A stretch of 64,000 nt of DNA from Escherichia coli (GTDB lineage: Bacteria; Pseudomonadota; Gammaproteobacteria; Enterobacterales; Enterobacteriaceae): NCBI RefSeq assembly GCF_003334765.1, contig NZ_QOWT01000009.1. The stretch is one strand, 5' to 3'. Position numbers and translations under genes: made by a program. How positions within the stretch are numbered: the first letter of the stretch is position 1; each line of letters begins with the position of its first letter. Of this stretch, positions 750 through 26,991 are shown piece by piece. The notes beneath the pieces are model-generated. The model was given only the letters and a program-made list of their open reading frames with translations. It was not told the DNA's origin and did no database searches.

Positions 750-2288
750 ATGCAACAACCTGTAGTTCGCGTTGGCGAATGGCTTGTTACTCCGTCCATA
801 AACCAAATTAGCCGCAATGGGCGTCAACTTACCCTTGAGCCGAGATTAATCGATCTTCTGGTTTTCTTTGCTCAACACAGTGGCGAAGTACTTAGCAGGG
901 ATGAACTTATCGATAATGTCTGGAAGAGAAGTATTGTCACCAATCACGTTGTGACGCAGAGTATCTCAGAACTACGTAAGTCATTAAAAGATAATGATGA
1001 AGATAGTCCTGTCTATATCGCTACTGTACCAAAGCGCGGCTATAAATTAATGGTGCCGGTTATCTGGTACAGCGAAGAAGAGGGAGAGGAAATAATGCTA
1101 TCTTCGCCTCCCCCTATACCAGAGGCGGTTCCTGCCACAGATTCTCCCTCCCACAGTCTTAACATTCAAAACACCGCAACGCCACCTGAACAATCCCCAG
1201 TTAAAAGCAAACGATTCACTACCTTTTGGGTATGGTTTTTTTTCCTGTTGTCGTTAGGTATCTGTGTAGCACTGGTAGCGTTTTCAAGTCTTGATACACG
1301 TCTTCCTATGAGCAAATCGCGTATTTTGCTCAATCCACGCGATATTGACATTAATATGGTAAATAAAAGTTGTAACAGCTGGAGTTCCCCGTATCAGCTC
1401 TCTTACGCGATAGGCGTGGGTGATTTGGTGGCGACATCACTTAACACCTTCTCCACCTTTATGGTGCATGACAAAATCAACTACAACATTGATGAACCGA
1501 GCAGTTCCGGTAAAACATTATCTATTGCGTTTGTTAATCAGCGCCAATACCGTGCTCAACAATGCTTTATGTCGATAAAATTGGTAGACAATGCAGATGG
1601 TTCAACCATGCTGGATAAACGTTATGTCATCACTAACGGTAATCAGCTGGCGATTCAAAATGATTTACTGGAGAGTTTATCAAAAGCGTTAAACCAACCG
1701 TGGCCACAACGAATGCAGGAGACGCTCCAGAAAATTTTGCCGCATCGTGGTGCGTTATTAACTAATTTTTATCAGGCACATGATTATTTACTGCATGGCG
1801 ATGATAAATCATTGAACCGTGCCAGTGAATTATTAGGTGAGATTGTTCAATCATCCCCAGAATTTACCTACGCGAGAGCAGAAAAAGCATTAGTTGATAT
1901 CGTGCGCCATTCTCAACATCCTTTAGATGAAAAACAATTAGCAGCACTGAACACAGAAATAGATAACATTGTTACACTGCCGGAATTGAACAACCTGTCC
2001 ATTATATATCAAATAAAAGCGGTCAGTGCTCTGGTAAAAGGTAAAACAGATGAGTCTTACCAGGCGATAAATACTGGCATTGATCTTGAAATGTCCTGGC
2101 TAAATTATGTGTTGCTTGGCAAGGTTTATGAAATGAAGGGGATGAACCGGGAAGCAGCTGATGCATATCTCACCGCCTTTAATTTACGCCCAGGGGCAAA
2201 CACCCTTTACTGGATTGAAAATGGTATATTCCAGACTTCTGTTCCTTATGTTGTACCTTATCTCGACAAATTTCTTGCTTCAGAATAA
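750..2288 (+). CDS. cadC: CadC, ToxR-like membrane-integrated transcriptional activator of cadBA (512 aa)
   Basis: Full-length ORF; N-terminal winged-helix region, single TM segment (FTTFWVWFFFLLSLGICVALVAF), periplasmic sensor domain; recognised sequence. Confidence 0.96.
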   Translation: MQQPVVRVGEWLVTPSINQISRNGRQLTLEPRLIDLLVFFAQHSGEVLSRDELIDNVWKRSIVTNHVVTQSISELRKSLKDNDEDSPVYIATVPKRGYKLMVPVIWYSEEEGEEIMLSSPPPIPEAVPATDSPSHSLNIQNTATPPEQSPVKSKRFTTFWVWFFFLLSLGICVALVAFSSLDTRLPMSKSRILLNPRDIDINMVNKSCNSWSSPYQLSYAIGVGDLVATSLNTFSTFMVHDKINYNIDEPSSSGKTLSIAFVNQRQYRAQQCFMSIKLVDNADGSTMLDKRYVITNGNQLAIQNDLLESLSKALNQPWPQRMQETLQKILPHRGALLTNFYQAHDYLLHGDDKSLNRASELLGEIVQSSPEFTYARAEKALVDIVRHSQHPLDEKQLAALNTEIDNIVTLPELNNLSIIYQIKAVSALVKGKTDESYQAINTGIDLEMSWLNYVLLGKVYEMKGMNREAADAYLTAFNLRPGANTLYWIENGIFQTSVPYVVPYLDKFLASE

Positions 2289-2652
2289 GTAACTCCGGGT
2301 TGATTTATGCTCGGAAATATTTGTTGTTGAGTTTTTGTATGTTCCTGTTGGTATAATATGTTGCGGCAATTTATTTGCCGCATAATTTTTATTACATAAA
2401 TTTAACCAGAGAATGTCACGCAATCCATTGTAAACATTAAATGTTTATCTTTTCATGATATCAACTTGCGATCCTGATGTGTTAATAAAAAACCTCAAGT
2501 TCTCACTTACAGAAACTTTTGTGTTATTTCACCTAATCTTTAGGATTAATCCTTTTTTCGTGAGTAATCTTATCGCCAGTTTGGTCTGGTCAGGAAATAG
2601 TTATACATCATGACCCGGACTCCAAATTCAAAAATGAAATTAGGAGAAGAGC
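2289..2652 (+). promoter_or_regulatory. cadC-cadB intergenic region containing the cadBA promoter (Pcad) and expected CadC binding sites; includes inverted repeat ttgcggcaa-N4-ttgccgcaa at 2361-2382
   Basis: 364-bp AT-rich non-coding spacer upstream of cadB with SD aggagaa before ATG 2653; site positions not resolved by eye. Confidence 0.55.
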
Positions 2653-3987
2653 ATGAGTTCTGCCAAGAAGATCGGGCTATTTGCCTGTACCGGTGTTGTT
2701 GCCGGTAATATGATGGGGAGCGGTATTGCATTATTACCTGCGAACCTAGCAAGTATCGGTGGTATTGCTATCTGGGGTTGGATTATCTCTATTATTGGTG
2801 CAATGTCGCTGGCGTATGTATATGCCCGACTGGCAACAAAAAACCCGCAACAAGGTGGCCCAATTGCTTATGCCGGAGAAATTTCCCCTGCATTTGGTTT
2901 TCAGACAGGTGTTCTTTATTACCATGCTAACTGGATTGGTAACCTGGCGATTGGTATTACCGCTGTATCTTATCTTTCCACCTTCTTCCCAGTATTAAAT
3001 GATCCTGTTCCGGCGGGTATCGCCTGTATTGCTATCGTCTGGGTATTTACCTTTGTAAATATGCTCGGCGGTACTTGGGTAAGCCGTTTAACCACTATTG
3101 GTCTGGTGCTGGTTCTTATTCCTGTGGTGATGACTGCTATTGTTGGCTGGCATTGGTTTGATGCGGCAACTTATGCAGCTAACTGGAATACTGCGGATAC
3201 CACTGATGGTCATGCGATCATTAAAAGTATTCTGCTCTGCCTGTGGGCCTTCGTGGGTGTTGAATCCGCAGCTGTAAGTACTGGTATGGTTAAAAACCCG
3301 AAACGTACCGTTCCGCTGGCAACCATGCTGGGTACTGGTTTAGCAGGTATTGTTTACATCGCTGCGACTCAGGTGCTTTCCGGTATGTATCCGTCTTCTG
3401 TAATGGCGGCTTCCGGTGCTCCGTTTGCAATCAGTGCTTCAACTATCCTCGGTAACTGGGCTGCGCCGCTGGTTTCTGCATTCACCGCCTTTGCGTGCCT
3501 GACTTCTCTGGGCTCCTGGATGATGTTGGTAGGCCAGGCAGGTGTACGTGCCGCTAACGACGGTAACTTCCCGAAAGTTTATGGTGAAGTCGACAGCAAC
3601 GGTATTCCGAAAAAAGGTCTGCTGCTGGCTGCAGTGAAAATGACTGCCCTGATGATCCTTATCACTCTGATGAACTCTGCCGGTGGTAAAGCATCTGACC
3701 TGTTCGGTGAACTGACCGGTATCGCAGTACTGCTGACTATGCTGCCGTATTTCTACTCTTGCGTTGACCTGATTCGTTTTGAAGGCGTTAACATCCGCAA
3801 CTTTGTCAGCCTGATCTGCTCTGTACTGGGTTGCGTGTTCTGCTTCATCGCGCTGATGGGCGCAAGCTCCTTCGAGCTGGCAGGTACCTTCATCGTCAGC
3901 CTGATTATCCTGATGTTCTACGCTCGCAAAATGCACGAGCGCCAGAGCCACTCAATGGATAACCACACCGCGTCTAACGCACATTAA
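2653..3987 (+). CDS. cadB: Lysine/cadaverine antiporter CadB (APC family, 444 aa)
   Basis: Full ORF, 12-TM amino-acid antiporter signature, paralogous to AdiC later in window. Confidence 0.96.
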   Translation: MSSAKKIGLFACTGVVAGNMMGSGIALLPANLASIGGIAIWGWIISIIGAMSLAYVYARLATKNPQQGGPIAYAGEISPAFGFQTGVLYYHANWIGNLAIGITAVSYLSTFFPVLNDPVPAGIACIAIVWVFTFVNMLGGTWVSRLTTIGLVLVLIPVVMTAIVGWHWFDAATYAANWNTADTTDGHAIIKSILLCLWAFVGVESAAVSTGMVKNPKRTVPLATMLGTGLAGIVYIAATQVLSGMYPSSVMAASGAPFAISASTILGNWAAPLVSAFTAFACLTSLGSWMMLVGQAGVRAANDGNFPKVYGEVDSNGIPKKGLLLAAVKMTALMILITLMNSAGGKASDLFGELTGIAVLLTMLPYFYSCVDLIRFEGVNIRNFVSLICSVLGCVFCFIALMGASSFELAGTFIVSLIILMFYARKMHERQSHSMDNHTASNAH

Positions 3988-25517: not shown

Positions 25518-25653
25518 TTTTTAACCTTAACGAAGAGCTATATTAATAACGGCATCAGCGATAACCCGGTCGATAATAATTCAACTATCGAATGCAGGCG
25601 TATGATATGACGTAATTTATTGTCACGAAGCTCGCCTTCGCAGGAGTTTAATT

Positions 25654-26991
25654 ATGTCTTCGGATGCTGATGCTCACAAAGTGGGCTTAATCCCCGTCAC
25701 CCTGATGGTGTCGGGGAATATTATGGGGTCAGGTGTTTTTCTGTTACCTGCAAACCTGGCCTCTACTGGCGGGATTGCCATTTATGGATGGTTGGTGACG
25801 ATTATCGGTGCACTGGGGCTCTCGATGGTATACGCCAAAATGTCGTTCCTCGACCCAAGTCCTGGTGGTTCTTACGCTTACGCCCGCCGCTGCTTTGGCC
25901 CGTTTCTCGGTTATCAAACCAACGTCCTCTACTGGCTGGCCTGCTGGATCGGCAATATCGCCATGGTGGTCATTGGCGTAGGATATTTAAGTTACTTCTT
26001 CCCGATTCTGAAAGATCCATTGGTATTAACCATCACCTGCGTCGTGGTGCTGTGGATCTTCGTCCTGCTGAACATTGTCGGTCCGAAAATGATCACCCGT
26101 GTGCAGGCAGTTGCCACCGTGCTGGCGCTGATCCCCATCGTCGGGATTGCCGTATTTGGCTGGTTCTGGTTCCGTGGTGAAACCTATATGGCGGCATGGA
26201 ACGTCAGCGGCCTGGGCACCTTCGGTGCAATTCAAAGTACCCTTAACGTTACGCTGTGGTCGTTCATCGGTGTGGAAAGTGCCTCCGTTGCCGCAGGTGT
26301 GGTGAAAAACCCGAAACGCAATGTCCCTATCGCCACCATTGGTGGGGTATTGATTGCCGCCGTTTGCTATGTACTTTCTACCACCGCGATTATGGGGATG
26401 ATCCCTAATGCCGCACTGCGCGTTTCTGCTTCGCCATTCGGTGATGCCGCACGGATGGCGTTGGGTGACACCGCCGGGGCCATTGTTTCCTTCTGCGCAG
26501 CTGCGGGTTGCTTAGGTTCACTGGGCGGCTGGACGTTGCTGGCGGGTCAAACGGCGAAAGCCGCTGCCGATGACGGACTGTTCCCACCGATTTTTGCCCG
26601 TGTAAATAAAGCGGGTACGCCAGTGGCGGGGCTGATTATCGTCGGTATTTTGATGACCATCTTCCAGCTCAGCAGCATTTCACCAAACGCGACCAAAGAG
26701 TTCGGTCTGGTTTCTTCCGTCTCGGTCATCTTTACACTGGTGCCATATCTTTACACCTGTGCGGCGTTACTGCTGCTCGGACACGGTCACTTTGGTAAAG
26801 CACGCCCGGCATATCTGGCAGTTACTACCATTGCCTTCCTCTACTGCATCTGGGCCGTGGTGGGGTCCGGAGCGAAAGAGGTTATGTGGTCATTTGTCAC
26901 CCTGATGGTCATCACCGCCATGTATGCGCTGAATTACAACCGGCTACATAAAAACCCGTATCCCTTAGATGCACCAATAAGCAAAGATTAA
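25654..26991 (+). CDS. adiC: Arginine/agmatine antiporter AdiC (APC family, 445 aa)
   Basis: Full ORF; paralogous to CadB (GVESA..VKNPKR motif shared); recognised. Confidence 0.96.

Follow-up and report, generated by a model that had tools for sequence, protein, structure and literature searches.

In the Cad and Adi acid-resistance systems of Escherichia coli, an antiporter of the APC family brings in lysine or arginine, a wing-domain fold-type-I PLP decarboxylase uses one cytoplasmic proton per turnover with release of CO2, and the resulting cadaverine or agmatine, a more basic amine, is exported via the same antiporter against new substrate, which raises both the internal and the external pH. 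Expression of cadBA is activated by CadC, a ToxR-like protein that spans the membrane and senses periplasmic pH, lysine and cadaverine, and that of adiA and adiC by AdiY, a cytoplasmic AraC-type activator. At another locus, the Gad acid fitness island is a recognised acid-resistance cluster; to our knowledge, the interval between cad and adi has not been described as an acid-resistance island of the Gad kind.

The window analysed here is a stretch of 64,000 nucleotides of E. coli DNA which, from base 113 on, is 99.97% identical to E. coli K-12 and collinear with its 93-min region, in reversed orientation. The cad and adi modules lie within 27 kb of it, as the original prediction had placed them: positions 750–26991 run exactly from the start of cadC to the stop of adiC, and cadC, cadB, cadA, adiA, adiY and adiC are all on the + strand. 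The 25-kb stretch that was compared matches annotated E. coli chromosomes at 100% identity and has a match in every one of 5426 complete genomes, in 4598 of which it is contiguous, with at least 80% of it in one place, and the proteins of the cad system are 100% identical to RefSeq WP entries. The segment is confirmed as the canonical E. coli cadCBA (lysine) and adiA-adiY-adiC (arginine) acid-resistance loci, already known, as the prediction had also held. Between them lie, besides dcuS, dcuR, dcuB and melB, melA, melR, which had been foreseen, dtpC, lysU, ghoT/ghoS, yjdJ, yjdI, fumB and yjdF, which had gone unmentioned. The biology of the interval is ordinary; the 27-kb proximity of the two systems, which are ancient paralogues, is very probably a lineage-specific juxtaposition through relocation of a cad cassette. 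This reading draws on gene identities, paralogy, synteny and variable location established here, and on the literature for the biochemical cycle and the regulation.

The first gene of the cad module is cadC (750–2288, + strand), whose product scores 752 bits on the NF007540 equivalog (cut-off 400). This activator of cadBA is a ToxR-like one-component regulator integrated in the membrane, with an N-terminal winged helix of the OmpR/PhoB type, one transmembrane helix (a single hydrophobic segment at about residues 155–183) and a C-terminal periplasmic sensor domain; Pfam finds PF00486 and PF18500 on P0001, a protein 100% identical to it, and residues 120–122 form a PPP motif. The gene has a GC content of 42% and a GC3 of 39%. 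The 364-nt region between cadC and cadB (2289–2652, + strand), with two terminator-like hairpins 3′ of cadC (2294–2315 and 2362–2382), is taken from the literature, rather than from mapping here, to contain the Pcad promoter and the sites bound by CadC. It is followed by cadB (2653–3987, + strand), for the lysine/cadaverine antiporter, a member of the APA (basic amino acid/polyamine antiporter) subfamily within the APC superfamily (920 bits on the NF007754 equivalog, cut-off 585; TIGR00905, 489 bits, above the cut-off of 409), and by cadA (ldcI; 4067–6214, + strand; 4067 is the annotated start, whereas the ORF lister begins at 4028), for the inducible PLP-dependent lysine decarboxylase (NF011929, 1628 bits against 1056). 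CadA has its best full-length match, at 1665.7 bits, in PDB 3n75, the solved structure of E. coli LdcI; each is 715 aa long. A strong terminator-like hairpin with an 11-bp stem and a T-run (6226–6251, + strand) occupies the gap between cadA and dtpC.

In the adi module, adiA (22164–24431, + strand) encodes the biodegradative PLP-dependent arginine decarboxylase (NF011603 equivalog, 1704 bits against 1167), which is 90–94% identical and syntenic in Salmonella and Citrobacter; PDB 2vyc, the solved structure of the E. coli enzyme, appears among the matches from the CadA structure search. Between adiA and adiC, adiY (24756–25517, + strand; GC 41%) encodes an activator of the AraC/XylS type, in which Pfam places HTH_18 (E 1.5e-14) and HTH_AraC twice, at residues 155–244. 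Its closest NCBIfam model is GadX (154 against a cut-off of 500), which makes it a member of the family and no GadX equivalog. The arginine/agmatine antiporter gene, adiC (25654–26991, + strand; NF007929 equivalog, 892 bits against 574), has a product whose best full-length match is PDB 3lrb, the solved AdiC (both 445 aa, 969.8 bits); on TIGR00905 it scores 353, below the cut-off of 409, and the histidine/histamine antiporter model (400 bits) exceeds the CadB model (372 bits).

That CadA and AdiA, and likewise CadB and AdiC, are paralogous was borne out by pairwise alignment, far beyond chance, with about 36–37.5% identity for the decarboxylases (36% over 740 columns, E 2e-163) and 38–40% for the antiporters (38% over 447 columns, E 4e-109). 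All the motif blocks quoted in the original prediction are present, namely STHKLL (CadA 364–369, AdiA 383–388), YMMHTTTSP and YMMHATTSP, and GVESA..VKNPKR (from CadB 202 and AdiC 206). NCBIfam equivalog or subfamily models exceed their curated cut-offs for CadC, CadB, CadA, AdiA and AdiC; CadA and AdiA belong to the LAOdc group (wing-domain AAT-fold Lys/Arg/Orn decarboxylases), with full-length curated-model matches above cut-off and the S-x-H-K motif (STHK at 364–367 and 383–386), CadB and AdiC to APC/APA, with full-length equivalog or subfamily matches above cut-off, and decarboxylase orthologues in other genomes carry PF03709/PF01276/PF03711. Going by the solved structures 3n75 and 2vyc, we take CadA Lys367 and AdiA Lys386 to be the PLP Schiff-base lysines; substrate specificity and the acid-pH-activated decamer are carried over from 100% identity to the characterised E. 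coli enzymes, and are thus predicted for CadA and AdiA. The separate regulators, ToxR-like CadC and AraC-like AdiY, are, as anticipated, unrelated (no similarity in the CadC–AdiY comparison), and only decarboxylase and antiporter, two of the three genes, are paralogous between the modules. The gene order also differs, being regulator-antiporter-decarboxylase in cad and decarboxylase-regulator-antiporter in adi.

The partners in each pair are not each other's closest relatives: the nearest paralogue of CadA is LdcC (69%), and AdiC scores slightly better on the histidine/histamine model than on that of CadB. Identities to SpeF/SpeC (32–36%) and PotE (33%) are lower than those of CadA–AdiA (37.5%) and CadB–AdiC (39.9%), and Odc has been placed further from Ldc and Adc than these two are from one another (Carriel et al., 2018, PMC6257575). 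Since CadA and LdcC are 69% identical, and ldcC has been traced to a duplication of ldcI within Enterobacteriaceae (Carriel et al., 2018, PMC6257575), CadA and AdiA diverged long before the genus arose. The decarboxylase and antiporter trees, of three E. coli paralogues and with no outgroup, are congruent, which is only suggestive. The decarboxylase and antiporter pairs would thus go back to one ancient duplication older than Enterobacteriaceae, with the cad and adi regulators probably recruited separately.

The surroundings of adi were surveyed by a DcuB-anchored scan of the representative genomes of 100,044 species and a tblastn map. The genes dcuS-dcuR-dcuB-fumB-yjdF (11022–17756, + strand), for anaerobic C4-dicarboxylate sensing and transport and for fumarase, form a conserved backbone, syntenic across Escherichia, Salmonella, Citrobacter and Trabulsiella, and the longer order dcuSR-dcuB-fumB-yjdF-(melBA-melR)-adiA-adiY-adiC-eptA-basR is kept in Salmonella diarizonae and about 16 Citrobacter species. 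To the left of dcuS in these same genomes, no cad, dtpC, lysU, ghoST or yjdJI was found; an adhesin or DMSO-reductase operon lies there in Salmonella/Citrobacter. In S. arizonae and Trabulsiella other genes follow 3′ of yjdF or fumB (10-kb flank), and adi is not universal in the backbone. The melibiose genes (melB and melA on the – strand, melR on the + strand; 17895–21965) form a variable cassette, missing in E. albertii and several Citrobacter, and melB is missing in three non-coli Escherichia genomes. The small genes ghoT, ghoS, yjdJ and yjdI (9603–10841, – strand), between the cad block and the backbone, occur at this site in Escherichia only, ghoTS being AT-rich (GC 35%). GC3 is lower in the cad block (39–57%) than in the backbone (57–66%) and in adiA and adiC (59–61%), in keeping with a separate cassette.

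The cad genes, by contrast to this backbone, are found at varying sites. The cad block cadC-cadB-cadA-dtpC-lysU (684–9497, + strand) is the sole stretch homologous (blastn) to the cad loci of E. fergusonii (684–9484, 90.3% nucleotide identity) and E. albertii (1100–9497, 93.3%, on a contig cut inside cadC), and this homology ends about 66 nt upstream of cadC and at most 13 nt past the lysU stop. The order cadC-cadB-cadA-dtpC, usually with lysU, was found in at least eight chromosomal contexts, three of them within Escherichia, each non-coli context being represented by one genome and one of them (L086) being a metagenome contig. The block lies beside tRNA-Phe pheU in the E. coli/cryptic-clade lineage and between pgaABCD-dgcT and tRNA-Ser (serX)/ghrA in E. 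fergusonii. In E. albertii, whose dcuB contig ends just left of yjdJ, its neighbours are a yicG-like gene and ligB. The genome L007 has an unrelated island in the pheU-dcuS interval. Further contexts are a Raoultella-type contig, K. oxytoca, P. vulneris, Trabulsiella guamensis (without lysU) and Scandinavium, where the block, also without lysU, lies between hmp and glnB, presumably the cad site of Salmonella LT2 as well. A second cad copy or an assembly artefact may conceivably account for the location in E. fergusonii and E. albertii. The block adjoins a tRNA gene in E. coli (pheU) and E. fergusonii (tRNA-Ser), and in four other contexts (including L095) it does not; the gene lists hold no integrase or transposase within or bounding it, the only integrase remnant being outside, and no flanking direct repeats of at least 10 nt were found. 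The block was not filed as a classical genomic island or mobile element.

The two remaining genes of the block are dtpC (yjdL; 6273–7730, + strand), annotated as a proton-coupled dipeptide transporter and present with cadCBA in all eight contexts, and lysU (7967–9484, + strand), for an inducible second lysyl-tRNA synthetase, present in six of the eight. The cassette appears functionally coherent, since DtpC favours dipeptides whose C-terminal residue is Lys (PMC3478282) and shares Asp392 with the orthologues in an alignment of five, yjdL is induced by acid (PMC2270276), and LysU, up-regulated at low pH, is less inhibited by cadaverine than LysS (PMC5078493).

Because the adi backbone is syntenic and the cad block lies at varying sites, the 27-kb proximity is best read as lineage-specific and not as a tandem duplication. 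In this history, adi would be part of a backbone dcuSR-dcuB-fumB-yjdF-...-adiAYC-eptA-basRS common to Escherichia, Salmonella and Citrobacter, and a compact 8.8-kb cassette cadC-cadB-cadA-dtpC-lysU would have come to lie at sites differing by lineage, beside pheU in E. coli and the cryptic clades; we infer both the direction and the mechanism of its movement. Phylogenetic profiling, proposed with the original prediction and run in reduced form, favours independent histories of cad and adi. The "mosaic of low-pH/anaerobiosis functions" then seen in the segment stands as a mosaic by comparative synteny rather than by a shared theme, which fits cad, lysU, dtpC, dcuSR-dcuB-fumB, adi and eptA-basRS and fails for the melibiose genes and ghoST. 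That the modules are left over from a local duplication, tandem or segmental, in which a regulator-less decarboxylase/antiporter pair was copied in situ and genes were later inserted between the copies, would agree with the similar divergence of both gene pairs, with their common strand and with the nominal chance of about 1% for such proximity. This last figure (about 1.1% for two specified loci within 26 kb on a 4.64-Mb circle) rises to about 3–7% if any pair among the three to four decarboxylase/antiporter modules of E. coli is allowed, and is post hoc and not compelling. The duplication is largely refuted by the synteny data, since the backbone of Salmonella/Citrobacter carries no cad block and cad lies elsewhere even in E. 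fergusonii and E. albertii, and with the inverted gene order, the differing GC3 and the age of the CadA/AdiA divergence it is highly improbable.

Just as improbable is the gain of the whole cad-to-adi segment as one genomic island at pheU. The segment does adjoin pheU, from which cadC is separated by yjdQ, what remains of a P4-type integrase, and in the studied strain pheU, outside the window, is an active integration site, with an island inserted there upstream of cadC; however, dcuS-to-basR is syntenic in Salmonella/Citrobacter with backbone-like identity and GC3, only 684–9497 moves, and the remnant may stem from other islands coming and going at pheU. Somewhat less remote, yet still unlikely, is adaptive clustering, by which selection would hold cad, lysU, dcu/fumB, adi and eptA-basRS as an "acid/anaerobiosis island", for instance through a common chromosomal domain silenced by H-NS, co-amplification or co-transfer, or cross-talk between CadC and adi. 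Many genes of this 30-kb region are responsive to anaerobiosis or low pH (dcuB, fumB, adi and basRS among them), cadC and adiY are both AT-rich and under direct H-NS control (PMC2984483), and CadC has been reported to interfere with Adi (Casalino, 2010, cited in PMC5723341). Contiguity in 4598 of 5426 E. coli genomes also fits, although vertical descent alone predicts it within one species; moreover, sister species thrive with cad elsewhere, some E. coli tolerate an unrelated 15-kb island in the interval, unrelated genes (mel, ghoST) lie inside, and the cad block comes with terminators and a regulator of its own.

Compared with the known systems, the juxtaposed modules depart little from their K-12 counterparts. 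Genes and order are those of K-12 cadC-cadBA (b4133-b4131), with no functional difference and only the upstream pheU island distinct, and the match to K-12 adiA-adiY-adiC (b4117-b4115; the arginine-dependent system Adi, AR3) extends to the neighbours melR and eptA without any difference. E. coli has a third such paralogous module in speF-potE, for the inducible ornithine decarboxylase and the putrescine/ornithine antiporter. It consists of the same two protein families with the same decarboxylase-then-antiporter logic, but it is more distant in sequence (SpeF 32–33% identical to CadA/AdiA, PotE 33% to CadB/AdiC), lies about 3.6 Mb away at 0.72 Mb, and is controlled by a leader peptide (speFL) instead of a dedicated transcription factor as in cad and adi. 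With gadBC and the acid fitness island (Gad, AR2), cad and adi share the principle of a decarboxylase that consumes protons, paired with an antiporter; within APC, GadC is distantly related (E about 1e-14 to 1e-16 on GadC models), whereas GadA/GadB belong to a decarboxylase family different from that of CadA/AdiA. Finally, ldcC, for the constitutive lysine decarboxylase, stands alone, unlike cadA, which has an antiporter and a regulator as neighbours.

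The region at 750-26991 begins exactly at the start codon of cadC and ends exactly at the stop codon of adiC, as the original prediction had placed it. In the RefSeq annotation of one identical genome and of K-12 MG1655 the gene order is cadC, cadB, cadA, dtpC, lysU, ghoT, ghoS, yjdJ, yjdI, dcuS, dcuR, dcuB, fumB, yjdF, melB, melA, melR, adiA, adiY, adiC, eptA, basR and basS, with the C4-dicarboxylate (dcu/fumB) and mel genes between the two modules, as predicted. The ORFs of the window were listed, and positions 750-25700 were compared by megablast with 5,426 complete E. coli genomes; a match is present in all 5,426, it covers at least 80% in one piece in 4,598, and several chromosomes match at 100% identity. 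K-12 is collinear with positions 113-64000 at 99.97% identity, in the 93-min region and in reverse orientation. The sole length difference is in naRNA4 (REP/BIME-type), of which the window holds three tandem 100-nt units at 36304-36580, where K-12 has three more, and a fourth copy on the other strand at 39056-39136. The Rfam scan found no RNA family inside 750-26991; elsewhere in the window it located two expected features, STnc630 by basS/pmrR (30473-30638, minus strand) and the SECIS element at its usual place in fdhF (63431-63485, plus strand). A promoter consensus scan was uninformative (17 sites vs. 19.8 in shuffled sequence).

The paralogy proposed for the decarboxylases and for the antiporters is borne out by pairwise alignment. 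CadA and AdiA are 36% identical over 740 columns (E 2e-163) and CadB and AdiC 38% identical over 447 columns (E 4e-109), or 37.5 and 39.9%, respectively, in global alignment, and all the quoted motifs are found: STHKLL at CadA 364 and AdiA 383, YMMHTTTSP and YMMHATTSP in the same pair, and GVESA..VKNPKR in CadB and AdiC. The lysine of STHKLL is the PLP lysine of the solved enzymes. CadC, CadB, CadA, AdiA and AdiC pass the curated cut-offs of NCBIfam equivalog or subfamily models, and the solved structures 3n75 (CadA) and 3lrb (AdiC) are full-length top matches. Each module also has, as had been stated, a regulator of its own: the ToxR-like CadC joins a winged helix of the OmpR type to a CadC_C1 periplasmic domain, with a single transmembrane segment at residues 155-183, whereas an AraC double helix-turn-helix is detected in AdiY. 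Comparison of CadC with AdiY returned no similarity, and the two are regulators recruited independently.

Within E. coli the nearest relative of CadA is not AdiA but the constitutive lysine decarboxylase LdcC (69%). The ornithine decarboxylases SpeF and SpeC are 32-36% identical to both CadA and AdiA, and the putrescine/ornithine antiporter PotE is 33% identical to both CadB and AdiC. The same pattern, (Cad, Adi) vs. (Spe/Pot), is therefore seen in the enzyme and in the transporter, and it agrees with a published rooted tree that places Ldc nearer to Adc than either is to Odc and derives ldcC from ldcI within Enterobacteriaceae (PMC6257575). These comparisons, made without an outgroup, are consistent with an ancient duplication of one decarboxylase-antiporter pair but do not prove it, and support for such a duplicated pair is limited by AdiC, for which a histidine/histamine antiporter model scores a little above the CadB model.

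Whether the two modules also share a history as neighbors was approached by scanning one genome per species (100,044 species) with DcuB as anchor and 10-kb flanks, which are long enough to show both cadA and adiA in any genome arranged as in E. coli, and by mapping all 23 window proteins to 80 dcuB loci with tblastn. The full cad-to-adi arrangement is found in the Escherichia genomes of E. coli, Escherichia sp. E1V33 and E. whittamii. The backbone dcuS-dcuR-dcuB-fumB-yjdF-(melBA-melR)-adiA-adiY-adiC-eptA-basR is kept in Salmonella enterica subsp. diarizonae and about 16 Citrobacter species, with AdiA at 90-94% identity, matching the neighboring genes. Left of dcuS in these same genomes, tblastn detected no cad, dtpC, lysU, ghoST or yjdJI, and an adhesin or a DMSO-reductase operon is found instead. 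In Klebsiella, Raoultella, Enterobacter, Proteus, Serratia and the others, the dcuB contexts are unrelated. About 10 independent Citrobacter assemblies (loci L012-L021) share a contig end just left of dcuS, 3.3-3.7 kb upstream of dcuB, a position that suggests a repeat there in this genus, such as an IS or rRNA.

The contexts of cad were identified by a search for CadC homologues followed by inspection of the contigs. The gene set cadC-cadB-cadA-dtpC(-lysU), kept intact, occupies at least eight chromosomal contexts in Enterobacteriaceae, at least three of them within Escherichia. In E. fergusonii (L087) it has pgaABCD-dgcT on one side and tRNA-Ser(GGA), ghrA and ycdX on the other; in E. albertii (L095), on a contig cut in cadC, a yicG-like gene and ligB are downstream; in a Raoultella-type contig (L086) the neighbors are unrelated genes; in K. 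oxytoca (L093) the block is downstream of cysS-folD, and in Pseudescherichia vulneris (L088) it is found with glk-ypdAB-alaC and mqo. All five include lysU, which is absent from the blocks of Scandinavium goeteborgense (L094), next to hmp and glnB, and Trabulsiella guamensis (L096), with a DMSO-reductase-like operon upstream and sugar and alginate genes downstream. We take hmp-glnB to be the location of cad in Salmonella LT2 as well; no Salmonella CadC is among the best 120 CadC homologues listed. E. coli and E. fergusonii are homologous at the nucleotide level only over positions 684-9484 (90.3%), and homology of E. coli with E. albertii (93.3%) stops 13 nt past the lysU stop codon, limits that sharply delineate an 8.8-kb unit. 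The cad block (684-9497) has a GC3 of 39-57% and ghoST one of 36-39%; the backbone has 57-66%, and adiA and adiC have 59-61%. The cad block contains no mobility genes, a search for flanking att-like repeats returned none of 10 nt or more, and a tRNA adjoins the block in two contexts and is absent beside it in the others. Judging from these contexts, repeated relocation or re-acquisition of cadCBA-dtpC(-lysU) is well supported, and the unit that moves between genomes is cadCBA together with dtpC (and lysU), five genes rather than three.

The absence of cad from the diarizonae and Citrobacter backbone, the cad sites elsewhere, the tight 8.8-kb limits and GC3 together indicate that the proximity of cad and adi is a juxtaposition specific to the lineage of E. 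coli and its nearest clades and not a relic of duplication. An origin of the two modules by tandem duplication, which their paralogy might suggest, was rejected on synteny, divergence and gene order, the latter being regulator-antiporter-decarboxylase in cad vs. decarboxylase-regulator-antiporter in adi. The profiling across genomes that had been proposed, carried out in reduced form, favors separate histories for the cad and adi modules. Neither an ancestral tandem pair nor an "acid island" should be inferred, without a direct test, from how near the two modules lie in E. coli.

A further explanation would be that a self-contained, mobility-gene-free lysine-to-cadaverine cassette, repeatedly moved, has been kept beside adi by selection, which would act via a shared H-NS domain or via cross-talk between CadC and Adi. 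Both cadC and adiY are under direct H-NS control (PMC2984483), which fits the low GC of both genes, and a given pair of loci would nominally fall within 26 kb with a probability of about 1%, although this figure is post hoc. The comparative data, however, explain the proximity without selection, and we regard this explanation as improbable. Among the papers searched, none was found to describe a cad operon whose chromosomal site varies or a "cad-adi cluster," which does not in itself prove novelty; neither selected proximity to adi nor the mobility of the cassette being undescribed is established. The juxtaposition of two independent modules is the reading retained here.

Plasticity is also evident beside and between the modules. 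The window opens (1-135) within the right-hand end of an island inserted at the tRNA-Phe gene pheU: positions 113-133 are a degenerate copy of the pheU 3' end (TTCGATTCCGAGTCCG--CACCA, without two G), after which comes the terminator hairpin of pheU, and an integrase remnant is found at 331-490. The tRNA scan of the window found none, because the island displaces pheU and leaves only this remnant. In an identical strain (database match H3), CP4-like genes (antirestriction, radC, cbeA/cbtA, DUF4942) are found in the DNA upstream. In some E. coli an island of about 15 kb lies within yjdJ-yjdI (PCN033, L089, 5042-20386; L007, 1-6390), with yjdJ duplicated, one copy at each end, and a cargo of two autotransporters including an S6 peptidase, an AraC regulator and a fimbrial chaperone/usher; the cad-adi distance then becomes about 42 kb. 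A 6.4-kb query from this island matches 21 genomes at full length and 609 partially. L007, labeled "E. coli E69" and 89% identical to K-12, was rejected as a cad-free site, since its left flank is the end of the fimbrial/autotransporter island also present in PCN033 and is uninformative on cad. The mel genes are variably present among relatives: melB is cleanly missing in three non-coli Escherichia genomes (L006, L008, L030), with a yjdF-melA gap of 27 nt, and the whole cluster including melR is missing in E. albertii (L009) and about six Citrobacter species, where adiA directly follows yjdF. Other insertions after yjdF or fumB occur in S. arizonae and Trabulsiella. In S. enterica subsp. arizonae (L011, 14020-20720) a minus-strand cluster follows yjdF where mel/adi would be expected; with its ABC-F ATPase, MFS exporter, ThiF-like adenylyltransferase and unassigned ORFs, it has the look of a small gene cluster of the peptide-antibiotic or microcin type.

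Plasmid matches were also considered as evidence of mobility, and most E. coli "plasmid" records with cad and adi were discarded as clearly chromosomal sequence; these PLSDB records (H17-H25, H32-H40) are 0.37-4.9 Mb long, evidently mislabeled chromosomes or fragments of them. The only genuine plasmid carriers among the matches are pUPC1 (cadBA) and Salmonella IncFIB plasmids (adiA-tehA-adiC). The conjugative IncF plasmid pUPC1 of Enterobacter cancerogenus (L091, 4989-10784) has cadB-cadA at about 72% DNA identity, without cadC, and after this pair comes a third gene, which carries the annotation [quoted passage not shown] The adi query matched 143 Salmonella plasmid records; in the IncFIB plasmid pRM11065-2 (L090, 5001-10215) the adi-like module is about 78% identical in DNA, and tehA replaces adiY.

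The five-gene unit fits published hints that DtpC brings in lysine dipeptides and LysU tolerates cadaverine. DtpC (YjdL) is an unusual peptide transporter favoring dipeptides with C-terminal lysine, a preference that requires Asp392 (PMC3478282), and this residue is conserved in all five DtpC orthologues aligned from the traveling blocks. Cadaverine inhibits LysU less than LysS, and LysU is induced at low pH (PMC5078493); yjdL is likewise up-regulated upon acid shift (PMC2270276). Because a strong terminator-like hairpin lies between cadA and dtpC, transcription of dtpC is probably not a simple extension of that of cadBA.

The original observation is confirmed in every particular, including its assessment as known biology: it is correct, its coordinates are precise, and its content is textbook knowledge. 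All that is added here is the independent histories of the modules and the mobile unit cadCBA-dtpC(-lysU). Cad and Adi, whose biochemical cycle and regulation follow the published accounts, are central to the survival of E. coli during stomach passage and fermentative acid stress, Cad responding to mild acid and lysine and Adi to a pH of about 4.4 and anaerobiosis, with the work split across the population (PMC8989999), and the pathoadaptation of Shigella and EIEC classically includes the loss of cad (PMC5723341). The window leaves this picture of acid survival and of Shigella and EIEC unchanged, and what it adds to it is modest and evolutionary.
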